A stretch of 55,073 bases of DNA from a virus (lineage: Duplodnaviria > Caudoviricetes), in the IMG/VR virus record IMGVR_UViG_3300042469_000249, positions 1-55,073 of that record; one strand, 5' to 3'. Position 1 is the stretch's first letter, and every line of letters begins with the position of its first letter. The translations under genes and the position numbers were made by a program. The notes beneath the pieces were generated by a model that saw only the letters and a list, made by a program, of their open reading frames with translations, had not been told where the DNA came from and made no database searches. Below are positions 16,753 to 50,604 of this stretch, in pieces.

Positions 16753-16937
16753 GAACATTTACCCTACACAAACAGAAGCCAGTATTCCGTATCAAGAACA
16801 CTCCACTCTCTGGCGAGTCAGTGAAGCGGGAGTTAATGGAAGCATTGGAAGCAGTCTTGGATTGCTACGGAGATGGCGATACTCTCCTGATGATGCAATG
16901 CCGCGCAGCTTTAGATAGAGCGAGGAGGAACCCATGA
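16749..16937 (+). CDS. Hypothetical protein
   Basis: ATGA-coupled at both ends. Confidence 0.6.
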   Translation: MRTFTLHKQKPVFRIKNTPLSGESVKRELMEALEAVLDCYGDGDTLLMMQCRAALDRARRNP

Positions 16938-18559
16938 ATATCAATGACCTCATGGCAACAGTTGAGTGGTCGCAACCCATTCAACTAAACACTAAACGAG
17001 GCGTTCGCTTGCTAAAGAAAGCACCCATTGAGCAAGCCTTTTGGAAAGTCTATGGCGAAGATAAAGAGCTATTCAGGAAGCAGATGGGTGACGCTGGCAT
17101 TCAGCTTGGCAAGTTCCGCGATGAGTGGCAACTAACTTGGTGGTCTGGCGATGATCTGAAGTTTAAGCAGATTATCGTTACCGATACTCAGCAAGAAGCT
17201 ATTCAAGAATTAGATTTAGTTCCTCTACTTCACCCCGAAGGTTTGTTAGAGTATCAGATTACCTCGGTGCAGATGGGCGTTGCCTCGATGAATAAATACA
17301 ATCGCGCTCTTCTCGGTCACTCCACTGGCGTAGGTAAAACATTCTGTGCATTAGGTATTGCCAGAGAGTTAGGCAAACGTATTGCGGTAATCTGTCCGAA
17401 ACCCATTACTACAGATTGGCATCGTGCCGCGAAGATGATGGGCGTTGAGGTCTTTGAGATATGCGGATGGGAATGGACAAAGACAGGCAAGAGTCAGCTT
17501 GGCCGTTGGACAGACGACAAGAAGAAAGAATTCCGCTTTATGCTACCCGCTGATGTCCTTCTGGTATTTGATGAGGTTCACAGAGGCAAAGGTGAAGCCA
17601 CCCAAAACGCCTATCTCGTTCGAGATTCAGTCAATCAGAACATCCCTGCCATTGCTCTATCTGCTACCATTGCAGATGATCCTACCAAATTGTGGGCTTT
17701 AGGTCAGTTCCTCGGTCTACACCAAGGAGGCAAAGATTACTTCCGATTCCTCAGTCAGAACGGATGCAGGAAGACCCGATTTGGAATGCAGTTCACAGGT
17801 GGGCATTCAGTCCTAAAGAAGTTGCACTCTCGTATCTACCCAGAACGAGGCAATCGGCTTAGACACTCTGATCTCGGTGACGCATTCCCTGAGACTCTGA
17901 TTAAGGCAAAAGCCTTCGATATGGATAATGCCAAGAAGATCGCCAACGAATATGATGACCTTTGCAACCGCATTGAGGAACTTCGTATGCAGGAAAACTT
18001 CTCAGCCAATGTTTTGGCAGAACAGACTCGCGCTCGCCAAAGAATTGAAATGTTAAAAGCTCCCGCTGTAGCAGCAATGACACGCGATTTGCTGGAAGAA
18101 GGTCATAGTATTTTCATTGCAGTCAACTACACCGAGAGTCGCCAATGGTTGATGGAAGAGTTGAAAACCGATTGCGCTATCTATGGTGGTCAGTCTGACA
18201 TGGAACGCCGAGGCAAAATTGACTCGTTCCAGAATGATAAAAGCCGAGTCATCATTGGACAAATTCAAGCGTGTCGTGAAGGATTAAACCTACACGATCT
18301 TAATGGCAATCACTCGCGCGTTTCTCTAATAATGCCCAGCCCAAGCATTTACGACACCAAGCAGGTATTGGGTCGGGTGCATAGGTCAGGCGGAAAAACG
18401 AAATCAATCCAGTTTTTGGTATACGCAGCGGGTGTTCCTATCGAAGAAAATATCTGTGAGAAGCTGGATGTTAAACTAAAGCGACTTGATGTTTTAGCGG
18501 ACGGTGAATGCGATCCAACCATTTCACTACTTCCAAAAGATGAAGAAAAACTAATCTAA
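16934..18559 (+). CDS. Superfamily 2 (SNF2/DEAH-like) helicase
   Basis: HSTGVGKT, FDEVH, LSAT, EGLNL, QVLGRVHR motifs. Confidence 0.9.
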   Translation: MNINDLMATVEWSQPIQLNTKRGVRLLKKAPIEQAFWKVYGEDKELFRKQMGDAGIQLGKFRDEWQLTWWSGDDLKFKQIIVTDTQQEAIQELDLVPLLHPEGLLEYQITSVQMGVASMNKYNRALLGHSTGVGKTFCALGIARELGKRIAVICPKPITTDWHRAAKMMGVEVFEICGWEWTKTGKSQLGRWTDDKKKEFRFMLPADVLLVFDEVHRGKGEATQNAYLVRDSVNQNIPAIALSATIADDPTKLWALGQFLGLHQGGKDYFRFLSQNGCRKTRFGMQFTGGHSVLKKLHSRIYPERGNRLRHSDLGDAFPETLIKAKAFDMDNAKKIANEYDDLCNRIEELRMQENFSANVLAEQTRARQRIEMLKAPAVAAMTRDLLEEGHSIFIAVNYTESRQWLMEELKTDCAIYGGQSDMERRGKIDSFQNDKSRVIIGQIQACREGLNLHDLNGNHSRVSLIMPSPSIYDTKQVLGRVHRSGGKTKSIQFLVYAAGVPIEENICEKLDVKLKRLDVLADGECDPTISLLPKDEEKLI

Positions 18560-18579
18560 AATTAGTTTCACTCAAACTT

Positions 18580-18625
18580 AAAAACCAGATTGGAAAAAAT
18601 TCCTTTCTGGTTTTTTTTGTTTTTT
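18580..18625. terminator. Bidirectional intrinsic terminator
   Basis: AAAAACCAGA...TCTGGTTTTTTTT between converging transcription units. Confidence 0.65.
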
Positions 18626-18660
18626 ATTTTAAAATATTTTTTCTTTTTTCCCCGAATCTT

Positions 18661-19150
18661 ACACTGCTTCTGGAAGGTTTGAACTGGCAGTGCAGAGACA
18701 CTTCGCCTGTTGTGAGGAATAAGTGTCTGAGTCTACTTCCGTATAGGAATCACAGTATAGTTCTTTCGACATTTACGTTGTTGTTTTTATCGGCCCGCAC
18801 TAACACTCCATATTCAGCCTCAACAACGCCTTCGCCAACCTTTCGGTTGCGTGTATCCCAAGCTTTCGCTTGAGCGGGTCAGGTGGCATGGCTACATCAT
18901 TCCGACCCCGTGCGTGTTATAGTGAGTGCAACCAAAGTTTCGTCACCATGTTCTCGGTCATATTTCGCTTACCGATACAGCATACTAACACGGGTTACTC
19001 TGGGGAACTGCGTAAGCTTCATACCAAGTAAATACCCGCTGCATCCAACGGTGGCAAAAAAATTGGGCCTGTCGTAGCTTGCGGACTACAACAGACCCAT
19101 TTTATTGACTCAAAATTGATCTCCAAAGTCCGCAAGAACTCGTATTGGAT
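18661..19150 (-). ncRNA. Putative large structured ncRNA (~490 nt)
   Basis: ORF-free; own promoter; GAAA-tetraloop hairpins and many helices whose G-U pairs favour the minus strand. Confidence 0.6.
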
Positions 19151-19156
19151 ACGAGG

Positions 19157-19184
19157 AATCTAACAGAGCAAAGACCAATGTCAA
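19157..19184 (-). promoter_or_regulatory. Sigma70-like promoter (TTGACA-16-TAGATT, extended -10)
   Basis: Read on the minus strand; palindromic site at 19194-19209 just upstream. Confidence 0.6.
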
Positions 19185-19210
19185 ATACTTTTTTTATCGT
19201 TTCCGATACT

Positions 19211-19492
19211 TTAGCTGATAATCCGTGGAGCCTCCTCTTTCTCCTCTTCCTTATCGAATCGCTTGCGGAATTGGGACTCGCGGTAATAAAAAAACGCCAA
19301 TTCCATGTGCTTGATGGCTTCAAATCCTTCACCCTTACGGGATTCTGATTTAATTACCATCATTGATGCCGTATGCAACAGGCTTGCCATTGCATGGACT
19401 CGTTCGTTTAGTGTCTCGTCATCGCATTTATGAAAACTAAAAGCTTCCAGAATTGATTTCGAGGTTTCGTTTTGTGGTGTTTGTTCTGACAT
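19211..19492 (-). CDS. Hypothetical protein
   Basis: 93-aa ORF at the end of the recombination operon. Confidence 0.65.
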   Translation of the reverse strand: MSEQTPQNETSKSILEAFSFHKCDDETLNERVHAMASLLHTASMMVIKSESRKGEGFEAIKHMELAFFYYRESQFRKRFDKEEEKEEAPRIIS

Positions 19493-22771: not shown

Positions 22772-25700
22772 TTATTTATTCGGAAGCTTGTTCAAAAATA
22801 TATTGTAGTTCTTTTGATATTGGCTTTCGAGCTTCTGAATCTCATCAAATTTTTCTTTGCTCACTTTTTCTTTGAGCCATTTCTTAAATGCTGTTTTCTC
22901 CGCTTGATCCATTGGCCCACTTCCAAGTCGCAATGGTTGACGATTCCTTGCGCCCGATTGCATACTTTGAATTGCGTTTGCTCGTTCCTTTTTTGGAAGG
23001 GAATTCAAATACTCTTTTGCATACGCCACCGCTGCTCCCGGTTCACCACGCTGGAGATAACTTGCAATCTCTCGATTGATTGGTGTCATTTTACCGGGGG
23101 CAATATCCATTGGTCGCTTAGTCCTGTATTCCAAACCTGCACTTTCAGCCCACCTGCGAGCATACTTATTGATCGAAGCAACCTCTCTTCTGAACATTTC
23201 TTCTGCTACGGTTGGGGCTTTTGAATATCCCAATCCACTCGCAGCGGTTTGATACAAGCGTTGAGCAACCCTGTATCCAGAGAATGTTCTGTTAAGGTAG
23301 TTGTTAATATCTCCAAGTGTAATCTTACCTTGGTCTGCGGCATTCTGAATAAGTGTTGCGGTTTCTTTGAAGATACTGAGAGCTGGAGGATCAAGGGGAT
23401 TTTTTACTCGTTCACGATCCTGCCAGTCCATGAAGAATTGACCATAATTTCCTATGAGTCCAAGCGCACCCATACCAATCAGATTATACCATGCGCGTTC
23501 AAGGGACAGATAGAGTTCATCGTCATCCTCGTCATCTTCAAATGCCCTGATAATATCTTCGTAACTTGGCCCCTTCATCAGCACACCGAAAAGCATATCG
23601 CGCATACGAAGGATTACTTCACCACCAACATAAGCAGAAGCAAGCCACATCATCACAGGAATGATTGTGAGTGCCTTACCTTCGGCTTTTGTTACCTTCT
23701 TAGGTATCTCATCCAGTGTAATCTTACGATTGTCACCAAGCTCTTTTGCTTCAGCCAACCTCAAACGATATAGTAATTGTCGAGTTGGATCGGGAAGTTG
23801 AAAGGTTTCATTCTTGTTGGTTACTGCTTTCCAAGCTGGCTCAAATGTATTCTTCCAGCTTTGACGCATGACTTGAGTTGAGAACTTCTGATACTTAAAC
23901 AAGAACCTTCCAATAGGAGTATCTGTAAAGATTGGAGTTTGAGCAATCGTGTAGCTTCCTTGCGAGATGTTGGCAAAGTAACGAAGTAGTTTGTCAGTTT
24001 CTGGGCCAGTGCCCCGCTCAACGATTAGCTTATCAGCATCAATGTTGTTTCGGTTCAACCATGTTAATGCTCGTTTAGAAAATGAACTATCAGGGTTCTT
24101 AGATAGACTGGAAAGTGTTTTCCTCAAAAATGATTTTCCAATAATCATGCTTTGAGTTCTGACCATTTGTTCTACTGGTGTGAATCCAGACCATTTCAAC
24201 AAAAAATCAGTTGTTTTCTGCCCTGCTTTAGCAATTCCACTTGACTCAAGAACAACTTGATTGTCACCAATTATGTTCATCAAGTCACGGGATACGATAC
24301 CTTTTTCTCTCGCATCTTTAAGTTCTCTTCCAAGTTTGCGTAGTTCTGTAAAAGATGAAACATAACTTGAAAGTGCCCCTGGTTGTCCAACCATCGCATT
24401 CAAAGTTGTTCCACCAAAGAAGTTCAACATGGATGATGCAGGGTTTCCAAGCTGAAGTCCAGATGACCAAATATTTAGAGTCGCCATTCCCTTTACAATT
24501 GGATCATTTGGATAGTAACCCTCAACTCGTTCTTGTGCCGCTGTGATATAGTCAATCGTTCTCCGATCTCTGGTTGATTCTCTTGATCTATCCCAAAGAG
24601 TTTTTGAGTTCTCTCCAAGCTTCTGACCAAATTGTTCGATTCGACTGCTATGCTGTGCCCATCGTGCAACATAATCCGTCATTACTTGGGCAGAGTAATC
24701 GTAAAGTTCTTCTGGGAATGCTTGTCCACGGGCAACTTCAATTCCAGAAAAGTAATCATTCTGACTTCCCGTTCCTTGATAGTCAGAGATAAACGCTTCT
24801 GCTTCCTCTGGAGTTTGAATCCTACCAGATTTCATCAAGGCATCTACAATTTCATTGTATTCCTTTTGATATTTGTCTGGCTCCATCAATGCTCGCTTAT
24901 ACTCAGGCTTGAAAACTCGCGGCCAAAACTTTTCTACTTTTCCGATTGGTCGCCATCTTTGTAGCCCTTTATCAAAAACTTTGATTCCGATCCTTTGGTT
25001 TTCATTTCCAGATTCTTCACCAAACTTTTGCCAAGCGGTAACAATCTTCTGAGTGATTGGATTTAGTTCATCAAAGAACTCAGCGGTATCTCGTTTGTTT
25101 TCTTGTGCTGCAAAAAACCTTTTGACTTCTTCATCAATCTTTTTCTTGGTTGATTTGGATTGCTTGGAATATTCATCAAATGCTGGCAGTAGAATCTTGT
25201 TTGCGAATCCAAGTCGGCGTTGAGCTTGATCGTAGTAATCATCAATAGCTGTAGCCAGTTTAGTGAATTTAGCCCTACGCAACCTGTCACTTGCCGATTC
25301 AAAAATACCACGGACAAAAGCAAAATTCTTGATATGACTCTCAATCTTATTGTTGATTGGCATATTGTTTTCTTTGCCAATATCAATTCCTTGAACCAAT
25401 CCTTCCGTAATTGTTTTTACTTCTGGTTCTATTGGGGTTGGTTCTACTGCCGCCTTACGAACTCCAAAATCTTCTGGACGCTCAAGAAATTCGCCAGACT
25501 TAAATCTATCTACAGCACCAGCAAGTATTGCTGCTGCATCACGATCAGTCATTTTGAACTTAGTTTTAAAATTATCGTTCAACCATTTTTTGACTGCATC
25601 AAGTAGTCTTTGAAATGCACTTCTATTTTCTCCAGCATTTAAACGAGCAACAAATGCGTAAACTTGTTTCTCTTCCAATCGAACTTCGCCCGTTTCATCA

Positions 25701-28084
25701 TTGTAAACATTCTCAACAAATCGCTCTAACTTTGCTTTTTCTTTTGCTGGCAAACTATTCCAAAATTCTTCAAATGCTGATTTAACTGTTGGATCACCAA
25801 GAATATAATGACCAAGTTCATGCGCGATGTAGTCACGAATATTGTCATCCGTTGAAAGATATGCTCTGTTTAGGTAAATTGTTCCAGTCCCAATTTCATA
25901 TCCTGCCTTACCTTTCTCATTAACATCATCAATGAGATTCAAATATTCACCAACAAAGTCTTCTCCAAACATCTTTATTACAGCATTAATGATGTTTTTT
26001 GCTGGAACCAATTTATCATCAGGTGTTGGAATTACCCCTGCAACAACTTTGCGAATTGGCATCTTCTTAATGGGTTTCAAGTCTTTAGCTTCTACTACCT
26101 GCATCTCTCCTGTTCGCTCGCTTTTTACAGAATAAAACTGCTCGTTATTAGCCTTTTCTGCTTCAGTCTGTGGGATTGCTTCTTCTACGATGTATGCTTG
26201 TGGTGACTTACCAAGTTTGATGCGGTTGCCTACGGATATACCTGTGGGTTCTGCTGGCGTTATCGTTTCCGATACTGCGGATGGTTTAAACAAATTTACC
26301 TTTTGGATTGCTTCACGGACATCTTGCATCTTGCCCTTTAATGATTCTTGAAAATCTTTATCTTTTTTTATCATTTCTGGTAATTGCATTAAAGAATCAA
26401 CCAATGCTTTATCAGATTTTTGTTCTGGCGATCTGTTAGATATAATTTCCGCCAATATAGAAAACCTTTGTCCGTTTTCAGTATTTATCCAGCCTTCTTG
26501 ATTTTGACCTTCTGCCAAGTTGAGCATATCTTGAAACAAGTCTGCGCTTGAAACATCGTTATTATTTCTCCGATAACGCTCCAATTCTACTTGAGCATAT
26601 TGGTCTTGCAATTTCGCATACTCATTGCGTTTTGCTCTGTTTTGCAAGATTGCATTTCTGCTTTTTGGATTTTCAATATCCTTCTCTATCTTATCAATTT
26701 CATTGACTCGCTGATTGTATATTTCATTAAAAGCATTATCATCCAATTCTTGTAGAGATAAGTCTGCTTGCTGTGGACGGAGCGTGCCAAGTGGTATATC
26801 TTCTTCAAGACTTACAATCTCCATTGGTGCAGTTTCCTTTACAGGAACAGGCGTAATAGCGGAAACTTCTGTGAGTGGTGCGGCAACTTCGGGTGCAGTA
26901 ATCGCTTTTGCCAACTCAATCTGTTGCTTCTCTGCTTCTACTACTGGCTCATTAGAATCTACTATGCTATCAACTTGCCCTTGTGCAGCGGCAAGAATAG
27001 CTTCTTTCTCTTTAAGTTCTAACTTGAGCTTCTGTGCGATTGGATCGGTTGATTCAATAGCCTGCAACACCTGCTTTGCATCAGCAACTTCTTGTTCAAG
27101 CTTCTGTTTGTTTGCCAACACTGCTTTGCCTTGAGGATTATCGTTACCGATAAAAAGATTCTCAGCCTCTTTGTTTGCACTCTCGTTAATTTTAGCTTCT
27201 GCAATTTGCTCTGGTGTGAATGGTGCGGAAACGATAGTAGCCGCTGCGCCTGCGCCACCACCAATCAATGCTTCACCGATTGCTTGCTTAGGACTAACCT
27301 GTATTCCTTTTTTAGTTTCTACAGTCTCACCAACTTGTTGAATCAATGCGTCTATTCCTTCTGGAAGTCCTTCGCCTAAAAAAGAAGACGCAAGGCGTTT
27401 AGAGAATGAACCAACTGCCTTCTCTCCACCCGGAAGATACTTGGCTCCGAAAGCATTTAGCAAACCAGAACCAGCAGCGGTGACAATAGCATAAGCCATG
27501 TCTTCATCAGTTGGTTCTGTGTAACCATTGTTCTTGGCTCGTTCTAAAGCAACTGGCCCCACGATCTGCGCTGCTTGGGTTAATGCTGGCCCTGCAAATG
27601 CACCCGCCGCTGCACCAGCAACTGCCCCGCCACCGCCACCTATCAACCCACCAAGCCCACCGCCAGCAACTGCACCCGCAATGCGTGATCCAATGCTCAT
27701 TAGAATCTGACCAGTCTGTTCTGCAATAGCCCTTGGAGCATACTGAGGAGCGAAACCAGCAACTTGAAACTCACCTTCTTGTGGCTCCATGAATCTTTGA
27801 CCAGCGGAAACATAACCTTCTGGTTCTTGAATTGCACCCTTCAATGCTGTGCCTACTGCGGGAAATCCAGAAACTTGCGCCGTCTCACCCATAGCTTCAA
27901 GCGGTTGACCAAACGATTGCTTGAGTGCCGCTGGAAGCTGAGAGATTTCTTGACCAATAGAAGTTCCTACTGGTTCTTTTGTTTCGGTTGGAATTTCTTG
28001 TTGATTATCATCAAGAAAAACAATTCTACGCTTCTGTGCTTGCGGAGCCTCGGAAACTTCCTCGTCTAAAAATACAATAGCCAT
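22772..28084 (-). CDS. Large internal virion / ejection (polyvalent-type) protein with zincin-like HExxH motif
   Basis: 1770 aa, last gene of the structural operon; Gly/Ala hydrophobic N-terminal region; IYLN...IAHELGH; helical C-terminal domain. Confidence 0.7.
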   Translation of the reverse strand: MAIVFLDEEVSEAPQAQKRRIVFLDDNQQEIPTETKEPVGTSIGQEISQLPAALKQSFGQPLEAMGETAQVSGFPAVGTALKGAIQEPEGYVSAGQRFMEPQEGEFQVAGFAPQYAPRAIAEQTGQILMSIGSRIAGAVAGGGLGGLIGGGGGAVAGAAAGAFAGPALTQAAQIVGPVALERAKNNGYTEPTDEDMAYAIVTAAGSGLLNAFGAKYLPGGEKAVGSFSKRLASSFLGEGLPEGIDALIQQVGETVETKKGIQVSPKQAIGEALIGGGAGAAATIVSAPFTPEQIAEAKINESANKEAENLFIGNDNPQGKAVLANKQKLEQEVADAKQVLQAIESTDPIAQKLKLELKEKEAILAAAQGQVDSIVDSNEPVVEAEKQQIELAKAITAPEVAAPLTEVSAITPVPVKETAPMEIVSLEEDIPLGTLRPQQADLSLQELDDNAFNEIYNQRVNEIDKIEKDIENPKSRNAILQNRAKRNEYAKLQDQYAQVELERYRRNNNDVSSADLFQDMLNLAEGQNQEGWINTENGQRFSILAEIISNRSPEQKSDKALVDSLMQLPEMIKKDKDFQESLKGKMQDVREAIQKVNLFKPSAVSETITPAEPTGISVGNRIKLGKSPQAYIVEEAIPQTEAEKANNEQFYSVKSERTGEMQVVEAKDLKPIKKMPIRKVVAGVIPTPDDKLVPAKNIINAVIKMFGEDFVGEYLNLIDDVNEKGKAGYEIGTGTIYLNRAYLSTDDNIRDYIAHELGHYILGDPTVKSAFEEFWNSLPAKEKAKLERFVENVYNDETGEVRLEEKQVYAFVARLNAGENRSAFQRLLDAVKKWLNDNFKTKFKMTDRDAAAILAGAVDRFKSGEFLERPEDFGVRKAAVEPTPIEPEVKTITEGLVQGIDIGKENNMPINNKIESHIKNFAFVRGIFESASDRLRRAKFTKLATAIDDYYDQAQRRLGFANKILLPAFDEYSKQSKSTKKKIDEEVKRFFAAQENKRDTAEFFDELNPITQKIVTAWQKFGEESGNENQRIGIKVFDKGLQRWRPIGKVEKFWPRVFKPEYKRALMEPDKYQKEYNEIVDALMKSGRIQTPEEAEAFISDYQGTGSQNDYFSGIEVARGQAFPEELYDYSAQVMTDYVARWAQHSSRIEQFGQKLGENSKTLWDRSRESTRDRRTIDYITAAQERVEGYYPNDPIVKGMATLNIWSSGLQLGNPASSMLNFFGGTTLNAMVGQPGALSSYVSSFTELRKLGRELKDAREKGIVSRDLMNIIGDNQVVLESSGIAKAGQKTTDFLLKWSGFTPVEQMVRTQSMIIGKSFLRKTLSSLSKNPDSSFSKRALTWLNRNNIDADKLIVERGTGPETDKLLRYFANISQGSYTIAQTPIFTDTPIGRFLFKYQKFSTQVMRQSWKNTFEPAWKAVTNKNETFQLPDPTRQLLYRLRLAEAKELGDNRKITLDEIPKKVTKAEGKALTIIPVMMWLASAYVGGEVILRMRDMLFGVLMKGPSYEDIIRAFEDDEDDDELYLSLERAWYNLIGMGALGLIGNYGQFFMDWQDRERVKNPLDPPALSIFKETATLIQNAADQGKITLGDINNYLNRTFSGYRVAQRLYQTAASGLGYSKAPTVAEEMFRREVASINKYARRWAESAGLEYRTKRPMDIAPGKMTPINREIASYLQRGEPGAAVAYAKEYLNSLPKKERANAIQSMQSGARNRQPLRLGSGPMDQAEKTAFKKWLKEKVSKEKFDEIQKLESQYQKNYNIFLNKLPNK

Positions 28085-49920: not shown

Positions 49921-49958
49921 AAAATATGCGAGGTGTAATATATGTCAAGAGTTTTTTT
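49918..49958 (-). promoter_or_regulatory. Sigma70-like capsid promoter (TTGACA-16-TATTTT)
   Basis: Same extended motif as the portal promoter. Confidence 0.6.
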
Positions 49959-50565
49959 CAGACCAAACAAATATTTTTTTGTTATGCTTTTTACGATTAA
50001 TTGATCTTGGTATTACTTGCAGATTACTTGGAGCATGGATTCCTCCAAGTGAGATTGGGTTTATATGATCTACTTCAAATGGAATTCCAATTATTTTAGA
50101 TAATCTTTGAGCTTGTTCAAAAAGTGAGGAGATTATCATTTTTGATTCATTTGAAAGGTCTGGAGTTTGAGCAACTTTTTTAGTTCTGTATTTCGCAAGC
50201 AACCCACTCATTCTTGCCCAGTTTTTTTCTCTCCATTTTTTATTTGCTAATGCAACTCTATCCTTATGGTTTTTGTAGTAATTCCTAAAGTATTCTTTTA
50301 TTTTTTCCTTGTTTCTTTCTCTCCCTGCTTTTGCAACTAATAGGTATTCTTCTCTATTATTTTTCCTTCTTTCTTTTCTTTGAAGACTTCTTTTTTCTCT
50401 ATTTTCATCATAATTTTTTTTTGTAGTATTTTGTCTTTTCTTATATAGGTCATTGAATTTTTCTGGTGTTACCCAATATTCATTGTTTGGATAGCATTTC
50501 CCATAAGCCCAAAACACTAATCCATTAGAATTAACTGCACCTCTTTTATGTTTTATCGTTTCCAT
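49945..50565 (-). mobile_element. Freestanding HNH homing endonuclease gene
   Basis: EVDHINPISLGGIHAPSNLQVI...N; K/R/E-rich helical region; very AT-rich; between scaffold and capsid. Confidence 0.8.
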
Positions 50566-50604
50566 TCCAACAATGATAATGAGCGACAATTTATAATCAA
50601 GCAA

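Follow-up and report, generated by a model that had tools for sequence, protein, structure and literature searches.

A candidate accessory RNA transcription unit with interchangeable bodies behind one conserved leader in a freshwater phage

What is encoded on the minus strand of virus record IMGVR_UViG_3300042469_000249, in the gap between a helicase gene and the operon that converges on it? The record, a complete freshwater phage (Caudoviricetes) of 55,073 bases from IMG/VR estimated by CheckV to be 100% complete, was analysed as a whole and is referred to here as the window. An initial annotation, made from the letters alone, had placed a large structured RNA free of open reading frames (ORFs) at 18661-19055, and had suggested a new class of phage-encoded noncoding RNA (ncRNA). 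The answer we favour, with slightly more confidence than doubt, is that positions 19184-18580 constitute an autonomous accessory ncRNA transcription unit, in which a leader would gate a platform for interchangeable RNA payloads; our confidence in the functional part of this answer is much lower. Comparison of related loci demonstrates, at the level of sequence, a unit that is accessory, horizontally exchanged, noncoding and complete from promoter to terminator. This is carried by the conservation of the promoter, the pairing within the leader, the swap of the payload, the pattern of presence and absence, and the noncoding nature of the region. Conservation of structure appears strong for the payload of most relatives, termed body B, and weak for that of the window, termed body C.

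The unit, spanning 19184 to 18580 on the minus strand, is larger than first reported. It consists in order of a promoter, a leader of ~110 nt with a terminator-like hairpin, a body of ~400 nt (~520 nt counting the leader) and a second terminator, as follows.

19157..19184, minus strand: sigma-70-type promoter, with TTGACA at 19184-19179, a 16-nt spacer containing TG, and TAGATT at 19162-19157
19139..19155, minus strand: inverted repeat CTCGTAT-CCA-ATACGAG, directly 3' of the -10 element
19127..19136, minus strand: leader strand CTTGCGGACT, the complement of the terminator-like hairpin's loop and top
19100..19115, minus strand: small A/U hairpin UUUUG-AGUCAA-UAAAA in the leader spacer, read by eye from the alignment
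19056..19099, minus strand: terminator-like hairpin and U-run, 15 bp at 19099-19064, then AA and 7 T at 19062-19056
18657..19055, minus strand: structured RNA body of type C, 399 nt, from GCCACC... to ...GCAGTGTAAGA
18611..18656, minus strand: A-rich linker from body to terminator, poorly conserved, where the substitutions and indels of the type C sequences cluster
18580..18610, both strands: bidirectional terminator CCAGAAAGGAATTTTTTCCAATCTGG with T-run

The promoter and the downstream terminator of the initial annotation are both present. The promoter was found not to abut the RNA first reported, the leader between them having been missed. The terminator was read by eye and is paired in the predicted fold, and is absent from the output of the promoter/terminator scan. 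It also serves the convergent helicase gene, whose end is at 18559, and is conserved at 89-96% in loci carrying the module.

Relatives were collected from IMG/VR by a search with the helicase (43 loci) and with a 328-residue protein of the convergent operon (37 loci). When 18560-19220 was compared with these loci by blastn, only one, L008, matched over the whole length (91.6%). Another 24 loci (13 distinct) matched over the first ~178 nt, comprising promoter and leader (72-95% identity), and over the last ~63 nt, comprising the terminator (89-96%), and carry a different sequence of 313-350 nt between these two matches. This intervening sequence is body B. Divergence between B and C begins right after GGAU, the 5' strand of the first helix in both; this helix is GGAUCG/UGAUUC in B, where it is invariant and so carries no covariation information, and GAUGCAGC/GCUGUAUC in C. 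No match to B was found in this region of the window with an nhmmer profile, and local alignments of body C with five B bodies gave z values of -0.8 to 2.5 against shuffles. Because leaders up to 95% identical are followed by bodies without similarity, we read the difference as one payload having replaced the other by recombination. Some features common to B and C were seen by eye, namely a motif UAAGCGAAA..GAC..GAAAC, an internal loop interrupting a long hairpin, and a hairpin with loop GUUCAAACC at the 3' end; these are not significant, and homology of B and C is not claimed.

The distribution of the two payloads was followed with sequence patterns. The leader pattern was found in 10 IMG/VR stretches, all in contigs from the earlier searches, and in 29 metagenome loci; a pattern for body B recovered 13 loci, of which 11 are the same module and two are chance matches in coding DNA. 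The leader-bearing loci collected all carry either B (76 loci, 36 distinct) or C (eight loci, 3 distinct), apart from one too short to type, C being the rarer payload and B that of most relatives. Among the 43 helicase-anchored loci, 14 hold B, one holds C, 21 have an empty site of ~70 nt containing another terminator, five hold a nuclease ORF, and two are unassigned (L032 is cut and L043 ambiguous); the states of L021, L023 and L039 are inferred from ORF spacing alone. Relative to helicase identity (66 to 97%), occupancy is a mosaic.

The sequence in the same slot of most relatives is well supported as a structured RNA. In an alignment of 23 distinct body B sequences of ~300 nt, the consensus fold has 13 helices with 69 pairs in total, and 98.8% of cells are paired. 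Both sides have changed at 20 of the 69 pairs, as against 9.9 +/- 1.5 in shuffles (a value reached in 0 of 500) and 1-4 in slid controls. Rfam returned no match to body B, the 16 related loci yielding none and a B locus searched at E<=10 yielding only noise.

The promoter is similarly constrained. TTGAC[A/T], an exact 16-nt spacer and TAnnnT are kept in all 34 distinct upstream regions, across 20 distinct spacer sequences; in the window the site has 10 of 12 matches in the scan, with TG present. The inverted repeat at 19155-19139, whose 5' arm begins 2 nt past the -10 hexamer, covaries in the leader alignment, where it forms helix 1, with changes on both sides in three of seven pairs. It may be the first RNA hairpin or, since it overlaps the likely start of transcription, a DNA (repressor) operator.

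Further into the leader, the terminator-like hairpin is met by a second, competing pairing. The hairpin was scored in the scan with 15 pairs, 7 of them G-C, and a 6-nt loop; its energy is -20 to -25 kcal/mol in all of the 29 distinct leaders aligned, and its lower-stem core (seven pairs, columns 67-73/95-101) is invariant in all 29. The segment covering its loop and top, AGTCCGCAAG at 19087-19078, is the exact complement of the upstream leader strand CTTGCGGACT, for which no further exact complement exists elsewhere in the window. At least seven contiguous complementary pairs between strand and loop are found in 29 of 29 leaders. The full helix comprises 11 pairs with 92% of cells paired and four pairs changed on both sides; one of its pairs, for example, is AU in 12 leaders, GC in 9, UA in 2 and CG in 1. 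Five unpaired cells at each of three pairs reflect a one-column register shift in five rows of the alignment. The covariation score of the whole leader structure tested was reached by 0 of 500 shuffles, and slid controls paired 30-45% of cells. The predicted duplex energy is about -16 kcal/mol in 23 of the 29 leaders and -8.0 to -15.5 kcal/mol in the other six, the five lowest energies stemming from rows shortened by the alignment window. G-U pairs, present in 16 cells of the helix, are compatible with the minus strand only, so the helix pairs at the RNA level. Between strand and hairpin, the small A/U hairpin of the spacer takes the forms UUUUG/UAAAA, UUUUC/GAAAA, UUGUA/UACAA and UUUCU/AGAAA in different relatives, as seen by eye and without a formal count.

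How can both structures be accommodated? The leader helix overlaps the whole loop of the hairpin and four further hairpin nucleotides, leaving 2 nt between the helix and the 3' arm, and so the full 11-bp helix and the full 15-bp hairpin can hardly coexist. By this geometric argument, either the top of the hairpin opens, giving a pseudoknot over the lower stem, or helix and hairpin alternate as a switch. Because the two compete for the same four nucleotides, the helix would modulate termination and read-through. Features of an intrinsic-terminator attenuator are thus present in the leader: a GC-rich hairpin with a U-run and an alternative pairing over part of it. Attenuators and riboswitch expression platforms likewise have a promoter-proximal leader in which an upstream strand pairs with part of a terminator hairpin. 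Unlike in these systems, however, the upstream strand here targets the loop and top rather than the base of the 5' arm, so that the GC-rich lower stem can still form. There is also no aptamer-like conserved pocket and no match to an Rfam riboswitch, and RNA rather than a coding gene lies downstream.

The helix is also unusually variable. Among 35 distinct modules it occurs as 12 alleles, and of 63 pairs of B modules with bodies at least 98% identical, only 10 share an allele. Because near-identical B bodies so rarely share an allele, the helix evidently changes or recombines much faster than the rest of the unit. Links from the leader to other sites were also considered. A third complementary site, matching 9 of 10 positions at 19262-19271 on the plus strand, lies 130 nt upstream of the unit inside a 93-residue ORF; it was rejected, being at chance level (3 matches against 2.5 expected) and without covariation in relatives. 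A possible helix between leader CAYY and body GGUR shows one compensated variant in the alignments, and pairing of leader GCCACCA with UGGUU..GC shows no covariation. No additional copies of the leader are present in the window.

Could the leader itself be the main product? On this view, an RNA of ~95 nt would be ended by the hairpin and U-run, the body would be a secondary read-through product, and the variable loop with its upstream strand would form a specificity pair between related co-infecting phages, like the CI RNA of phage P4 with seqA and seqC. As described in PMC4825925, seqA and seqC are targets on the regulator's own transcript, and pairing causes premature termination; this layout is a precedent for the arrangement seen here. 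As in P4 CI and the c4 RNA of P1/P7, one leader transcript carries, beside a terminator, both a short hairpin RNA and its complementary target, and the complementary pair varies between close relatives while the scaffold, here the invariant lower-stem core, is conserved. The c4 antisense RNA is a comparable case of RNA-based phage immunity. The strength of the hairpin and U7 as a terminator by sequence fits this explanation, and the allele counts are what would be expected of a specificity determinant, although a helix merely free to covary yields the same pattern without selection for diversity. Other observations speak against it. The leader has no match to a C4- or CI-type family of Rfam at E<=10 and no similarity to the C4 family; it has a single upstream target and no downstream copy; no further complementary site was found in the window, the one in the upstream ORF lacking covariation; and the window shows no recognisable integrase or repressor, so that lysogeny is not evident. 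What follows the leader is a long structured RNA, not replication or antirepressor genes, and the explanation leaves unaccounted for two long bodies of conserved structure that follow the leader in every typed locus. We consider it unlikely, though it is the main rival to an accessory unit whose payload is the product.

Strand-loop pairing between leader molecules could in principle also occur. The pRNA of phi29, likewise a structured phage RNA in which a loop covaries with a distant segment, uses loop pairing between molecules. The present unit differs from pRNA in having no sequence or model match to it and in not lying beside packaging genes; many close relatives lack it, which rules out an essential role in packaging.

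Within the body carried by the window, further features are as follows.

18859..18872, minus strand: GAAA-tetraloop hairpin CAAGC-GAAA-GCTTG, invariant in all type C sequences
18836..18849, minus strand: GAAA-tetraloop hairpin CAACC-GAAA-GGTTG, with the stem swapped in L114
19045-19038 and 18981-18974, minus strand: helix GATGCAGC/GCTGTATC, present in the minimum-free-energy (MFE) and consensus folds

The helices proposed in the initial annotation are all where it had placed them on the minus strand, and the tandem GAAA tetraloops fall exactly at 18872-18859 and 18849-18836. Besides the helix listed, GGGTCGG/CTGACCC, GCGTTGTTG/CAACAACGT, AGACACTT/AAGTGTCT and GCACTGC/GCAGTGT recur in both the MFE and the consensus folds. 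The minus strand of 18640-19110 folds at -146.3 kcal/mol, compared with -130.1 +/- 6.1 kcal/mol for dinucleotide shuffles (z -2.65; none of the 100 shuffles folds as low). For the plus strand, z is -0.39, and 33 of 100 shuffles are as low. Type C was found at eight loci from five contigs, representing three distinct sequences that are ~95% identical, and two C-specific pattern scans of IMG/VR for more distant homologues returned three contigs only, each with an identity to the window of 90% or more. The consensus fold comprises 118 pairs, and 99.2% of cells are paired. One-sided changes occur at eight pairs, all exchanging G-U with G-C or A-U. In GGGUCGG/CUGACCC, GGGGUCGG/CUGACCC of the window becomes GGGGUUGG/CUAACCC in the other C sequences, a change from C-G to U-A. 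In the second GAAA hairpin of L114, the stem UUACA/UGUAA replaces AACC/GGUU, retaining both the pairing and the GAAA loop (UUACA-GAAA-UGUAA). These changes are suggestive of a conserved structure in body C.

Is the region free of ORFs, as had been claimed? Short ORFs of 29-64 amino acids do exist within it on both strands, and so the term ORF-free was too strong in the literal sense; none of these ORFs is conserved, and none matches a PHROG family (best E-value 0.032). They are what would recommend the idea that the locus encodes one or more small proteins and that its structure is incidental. The sole ATG-started ORF on the RNA strand (37 amino acids, 18659-18772) is cut to nine codons in relatives, the plus-strand frames that remain open change by amino-acid replacements only, and the stem swap that keeps the GAAA loop, together with the strand-specific G-U pairs, points to selection at the RNA level. 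The small-protein explanation, which is barely credible, was rejected on account of the broken ORF and the lack of a PHROG match.

Does the RNA belong to a known family? The initial annotation could not match it to intron, RNase P, tmRNA or SRP cores, and the searches agree. Rfam 15 gave 0 matches at the gathering score across the whole window and 0 in the 16 related loci (136,415 bases). At E<=10, 18640-19060 gave 0 matches, leaving the body without even a weak hit, and 18400-19350 gave eight, every one of them at E >= 0.8 and well short of the gathering score; none of the eight lies on the minus strand inside 18661-19055, and two weak plus-strand matches overlap the A-rich 3' end. Families covered by this null result include GOLLD, ROOL, group I and II introns, RNase P, tmRNA, SRP, 6S and C4 antisense RNA. 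ARAGORN, applied to the 55-kb window, found 0 tRNA or tmRNA genes. On these comparisons, the RNA is without precedent in Rfam and belongs to neither GOLLD nor ROOL. Six short motifs were not found in the searchable supplements of Fremin et al. 2023 (PMC10690425), whose alignment archives and other files lay outside the search, so that a listing among its 10,006 candidates is possible.

The comparison with ROOL and GOLLD made in the initial annotation therefore holds as an analogy and not as family membership. The likeness is that of a large multi-helix ncRNA carried by phages, with GNRA tetraloops, non-essential by its distribution and without known function. GOLLD and ROOL often adjoin tRNA genes. 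The present RNA differs in matching neither model, in being smaller, in having no tRNA gene anywhere in its 55-kb record, and in having a dedicated promoter and leader with a swappable body. Few large structured phage RNAs are known to us, and we know of none with an established function. The suggestion of a new class fares similarly. The RNA is phage-encoded, noncoding and structured, has its own promoter and no match in Rfam, and the same slot in relatives holds a strongly covarying RNA. It is, however, not a class that stands alone: two unrelated payloads occur behind the conserved leader, of which this is the rarer, and its transcript must pass a strong terminator-like hairpin before reaching the body.

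Taken together, these findings are consistent with the following sequence of events. A host-type sigma-70 promoter would start the ~110-nt leader, in which the upstream 10-nt strand would pair with the loop and top of the strong hairpin preceding the U-run. Polymerase passing the hairpin would transcribe the ~400-nt RNA, predicted to fold into a multi-helix structure with GNRA tetraloops and to end at the terminator shared with the helicase gene. Promoter and leader would thus be an expression platform and the body an exchangeable payload, C in the window and B in most relatives. The payload is inferred to act in trans as a folded RNA, as a protein-binding scaffold or decoy during infection, rather than as a coding or long antisense RNA.

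Several points weigh against this reading. The leader hairpin of the window, with U7, has an energy of -24 kcal/mol and the look of an efficient terminator, and most transcripts may stop before the body. For the leader helix and hairpin, the sequence fits a pseudoknot as well as a switch. The promoter scan found two promoter-like sites, compared with 2.5 +/- 1.6 in shuffles; since this is no excess, the case for the promoter is its conservation. Covariation, proposed earlier as the check on a functional RNA, is found in the leader and in body B. In body C, both sides have changed at four pairs, a number reached by 7 of 500 shuffles with three distinct sequences only, and the structure was tested on the same shallow set from which it was derived. 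No partner protein, target or ligand of the RNA was identified, 32 of the 39 further ORFs of the window having no Pfam match.

A more far-reaching reading is a long shot. A fast-changing, self-complementary "address" helix, whose 12 alleles vary independently of the remainder of the unit, may decide, in cis or between co-infecting relatives, on read-through into unrelated RNA payloads; the locus would then be a new modular kind, an RNA-only means of self/non-self discrimination or competition among phages with interchangeable effectors. Three features of the locus are directly open to experiment. Two unrelated, structurally conserved RNAs (~400 and ~300 nt) substitute for each other behind one leader, which is testable, and the relatives with an empty site are natural "knock-out" controls. 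So is the pairing of the terminator loop with the strand upstream of it, for which at least 12 compensated alleles exist. Were the leader to gate read-through, it would be a compact new attenuator design; were the allele diversity to reflect phage competition, specificity would be carried by RNA alone. In either case, B and C are each a candidate for a new Rfam family and for structural study.

Why is the site so variably occupied? The RNA unit is flanked by the plus-strand helicase gene and by a minus-strand operon that converges on it, in which an exonuclease gene is followed by genes for 272, 328 and 93 amino acids, and in five relatives nuclease ORFs lie at the same site.

16934-18559, plus strand: superfamily-2 helicase gene (PHROG match), convergent with the RNA unit
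19211-19492, minus strand: 93-residue ORF, last gene of the minus-strand operon
L010:5693-6313, minus strand: nuclease ORF, endonuclease VII-like families
L024:5694-6314, minus strand: same 206-residue ORF, weak HNH match
L016:5586-6296, minus strand: nuclease ORF, HNH endonuclease families, E 8e-68
L031:5655-6581, plus strand: nuclease ORF, endonuclease VII-like families
L034:4030-4908, plus strand: nuclease ORF, endonuclease VII-like families

The endonuclease VII-like matches of L010, L031 and L034 have E-values of 3e-10 to 6e-13. Because five relatives carry HNH or endonuclease VII-like genes here, the intergenic site is, as judged from these gene contents, a hot spot at which homing-type nuclease genes of the free-standing kind and other accessory DNA insert; a locus holds either the RNA unit or a nuclease gene, not both. 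The unit might be no more than selfish or hitch-hiking DNA, spread by co-conversion at a homing-endonuclease hot spot, with a body functionless for the phage. The nuclease genes at the same site, the mosaic occupancy and the shuffling of leader alleles relative to bodies all fit such an origin. It is nonetheless rather improbable, given that compensatory change conserves structure in B (less so in C), that the promoter is conserved, that the junctions lack terminal repeats or a target duplication beyond an A-run, and that the nuclease cassette's long 5' untranslated region resembles neither B nor C (z 1.0 and -0.8). That cassette, as seen at L010:6313-6545 and L024:6314-6570 (both minus strand), has its own terminator and a promoter-like site TTGACC...TATCTT; its 5' untranslated region of ~190 nt looks structured and includes a AGCGAAAGCT GNRA hairpin.

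The setting also raises the question of replication. Two convergent DNA-replication operons (helicase, exonuclease, DnaB) border the unit, which ends in an A-rich stretch of ~45 nt and might be a cis-acting replication element in which a structured primer or origin transcript is followed by an A/T-rich unwinding region, the leader helix controlling primer maturation. RNA II of ColE1 is a parallel for a primer transcript. An origin is hard to reconcile with the empty site found in 21 of the 43 close relatives, whose existence already implies normal replication without the unit. The A-rich stretch is moreover the least conserved part, and no repeated protein-binding sites were noticed. A replication element is therefore very improbable, and an accessory RNA unit at a hot spot for inserts remains the reading we prefer.

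Beyond the phage contigs, the leader pattern gave one match in a set of bacterial and archaeal genomes, at locus L126 on contig CAYGZP010000003.1 (51,842 bases), which carries body B and belongs to a metagenome-assembled genome labelled Candidatus Woesearchaeota. In view of its phage-like size and body B, this is probably a mis-binned phage contig and no evidence for an archaeal host. The window offers no clue to its own host: no DNA similarity to GenBank phages was found, and its DnaB helicase is less than 27% identical to anything in them. PHROG matches in the window comprise a DnaB-like helicase, a dCMP deaminase, an exonuclease, tail-spike proteins and the superfamily-2 helicase; as with integrase and repressor, no RNA-binding protein was recognised among the PHROG and Pfam matches. 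The 1770-residue ORF at 22772-28084 (minus strand) has no Pfam match and a marginal PHROG match to a metalloprotease (E 6e-4). The 219-residue ORF at 49945-50604 (minus strand) contains an HNH endonuclease domain (Pfam PF01844, E 4.8e-05), indicating a free-standing HNH gene elsewhere in the genome.

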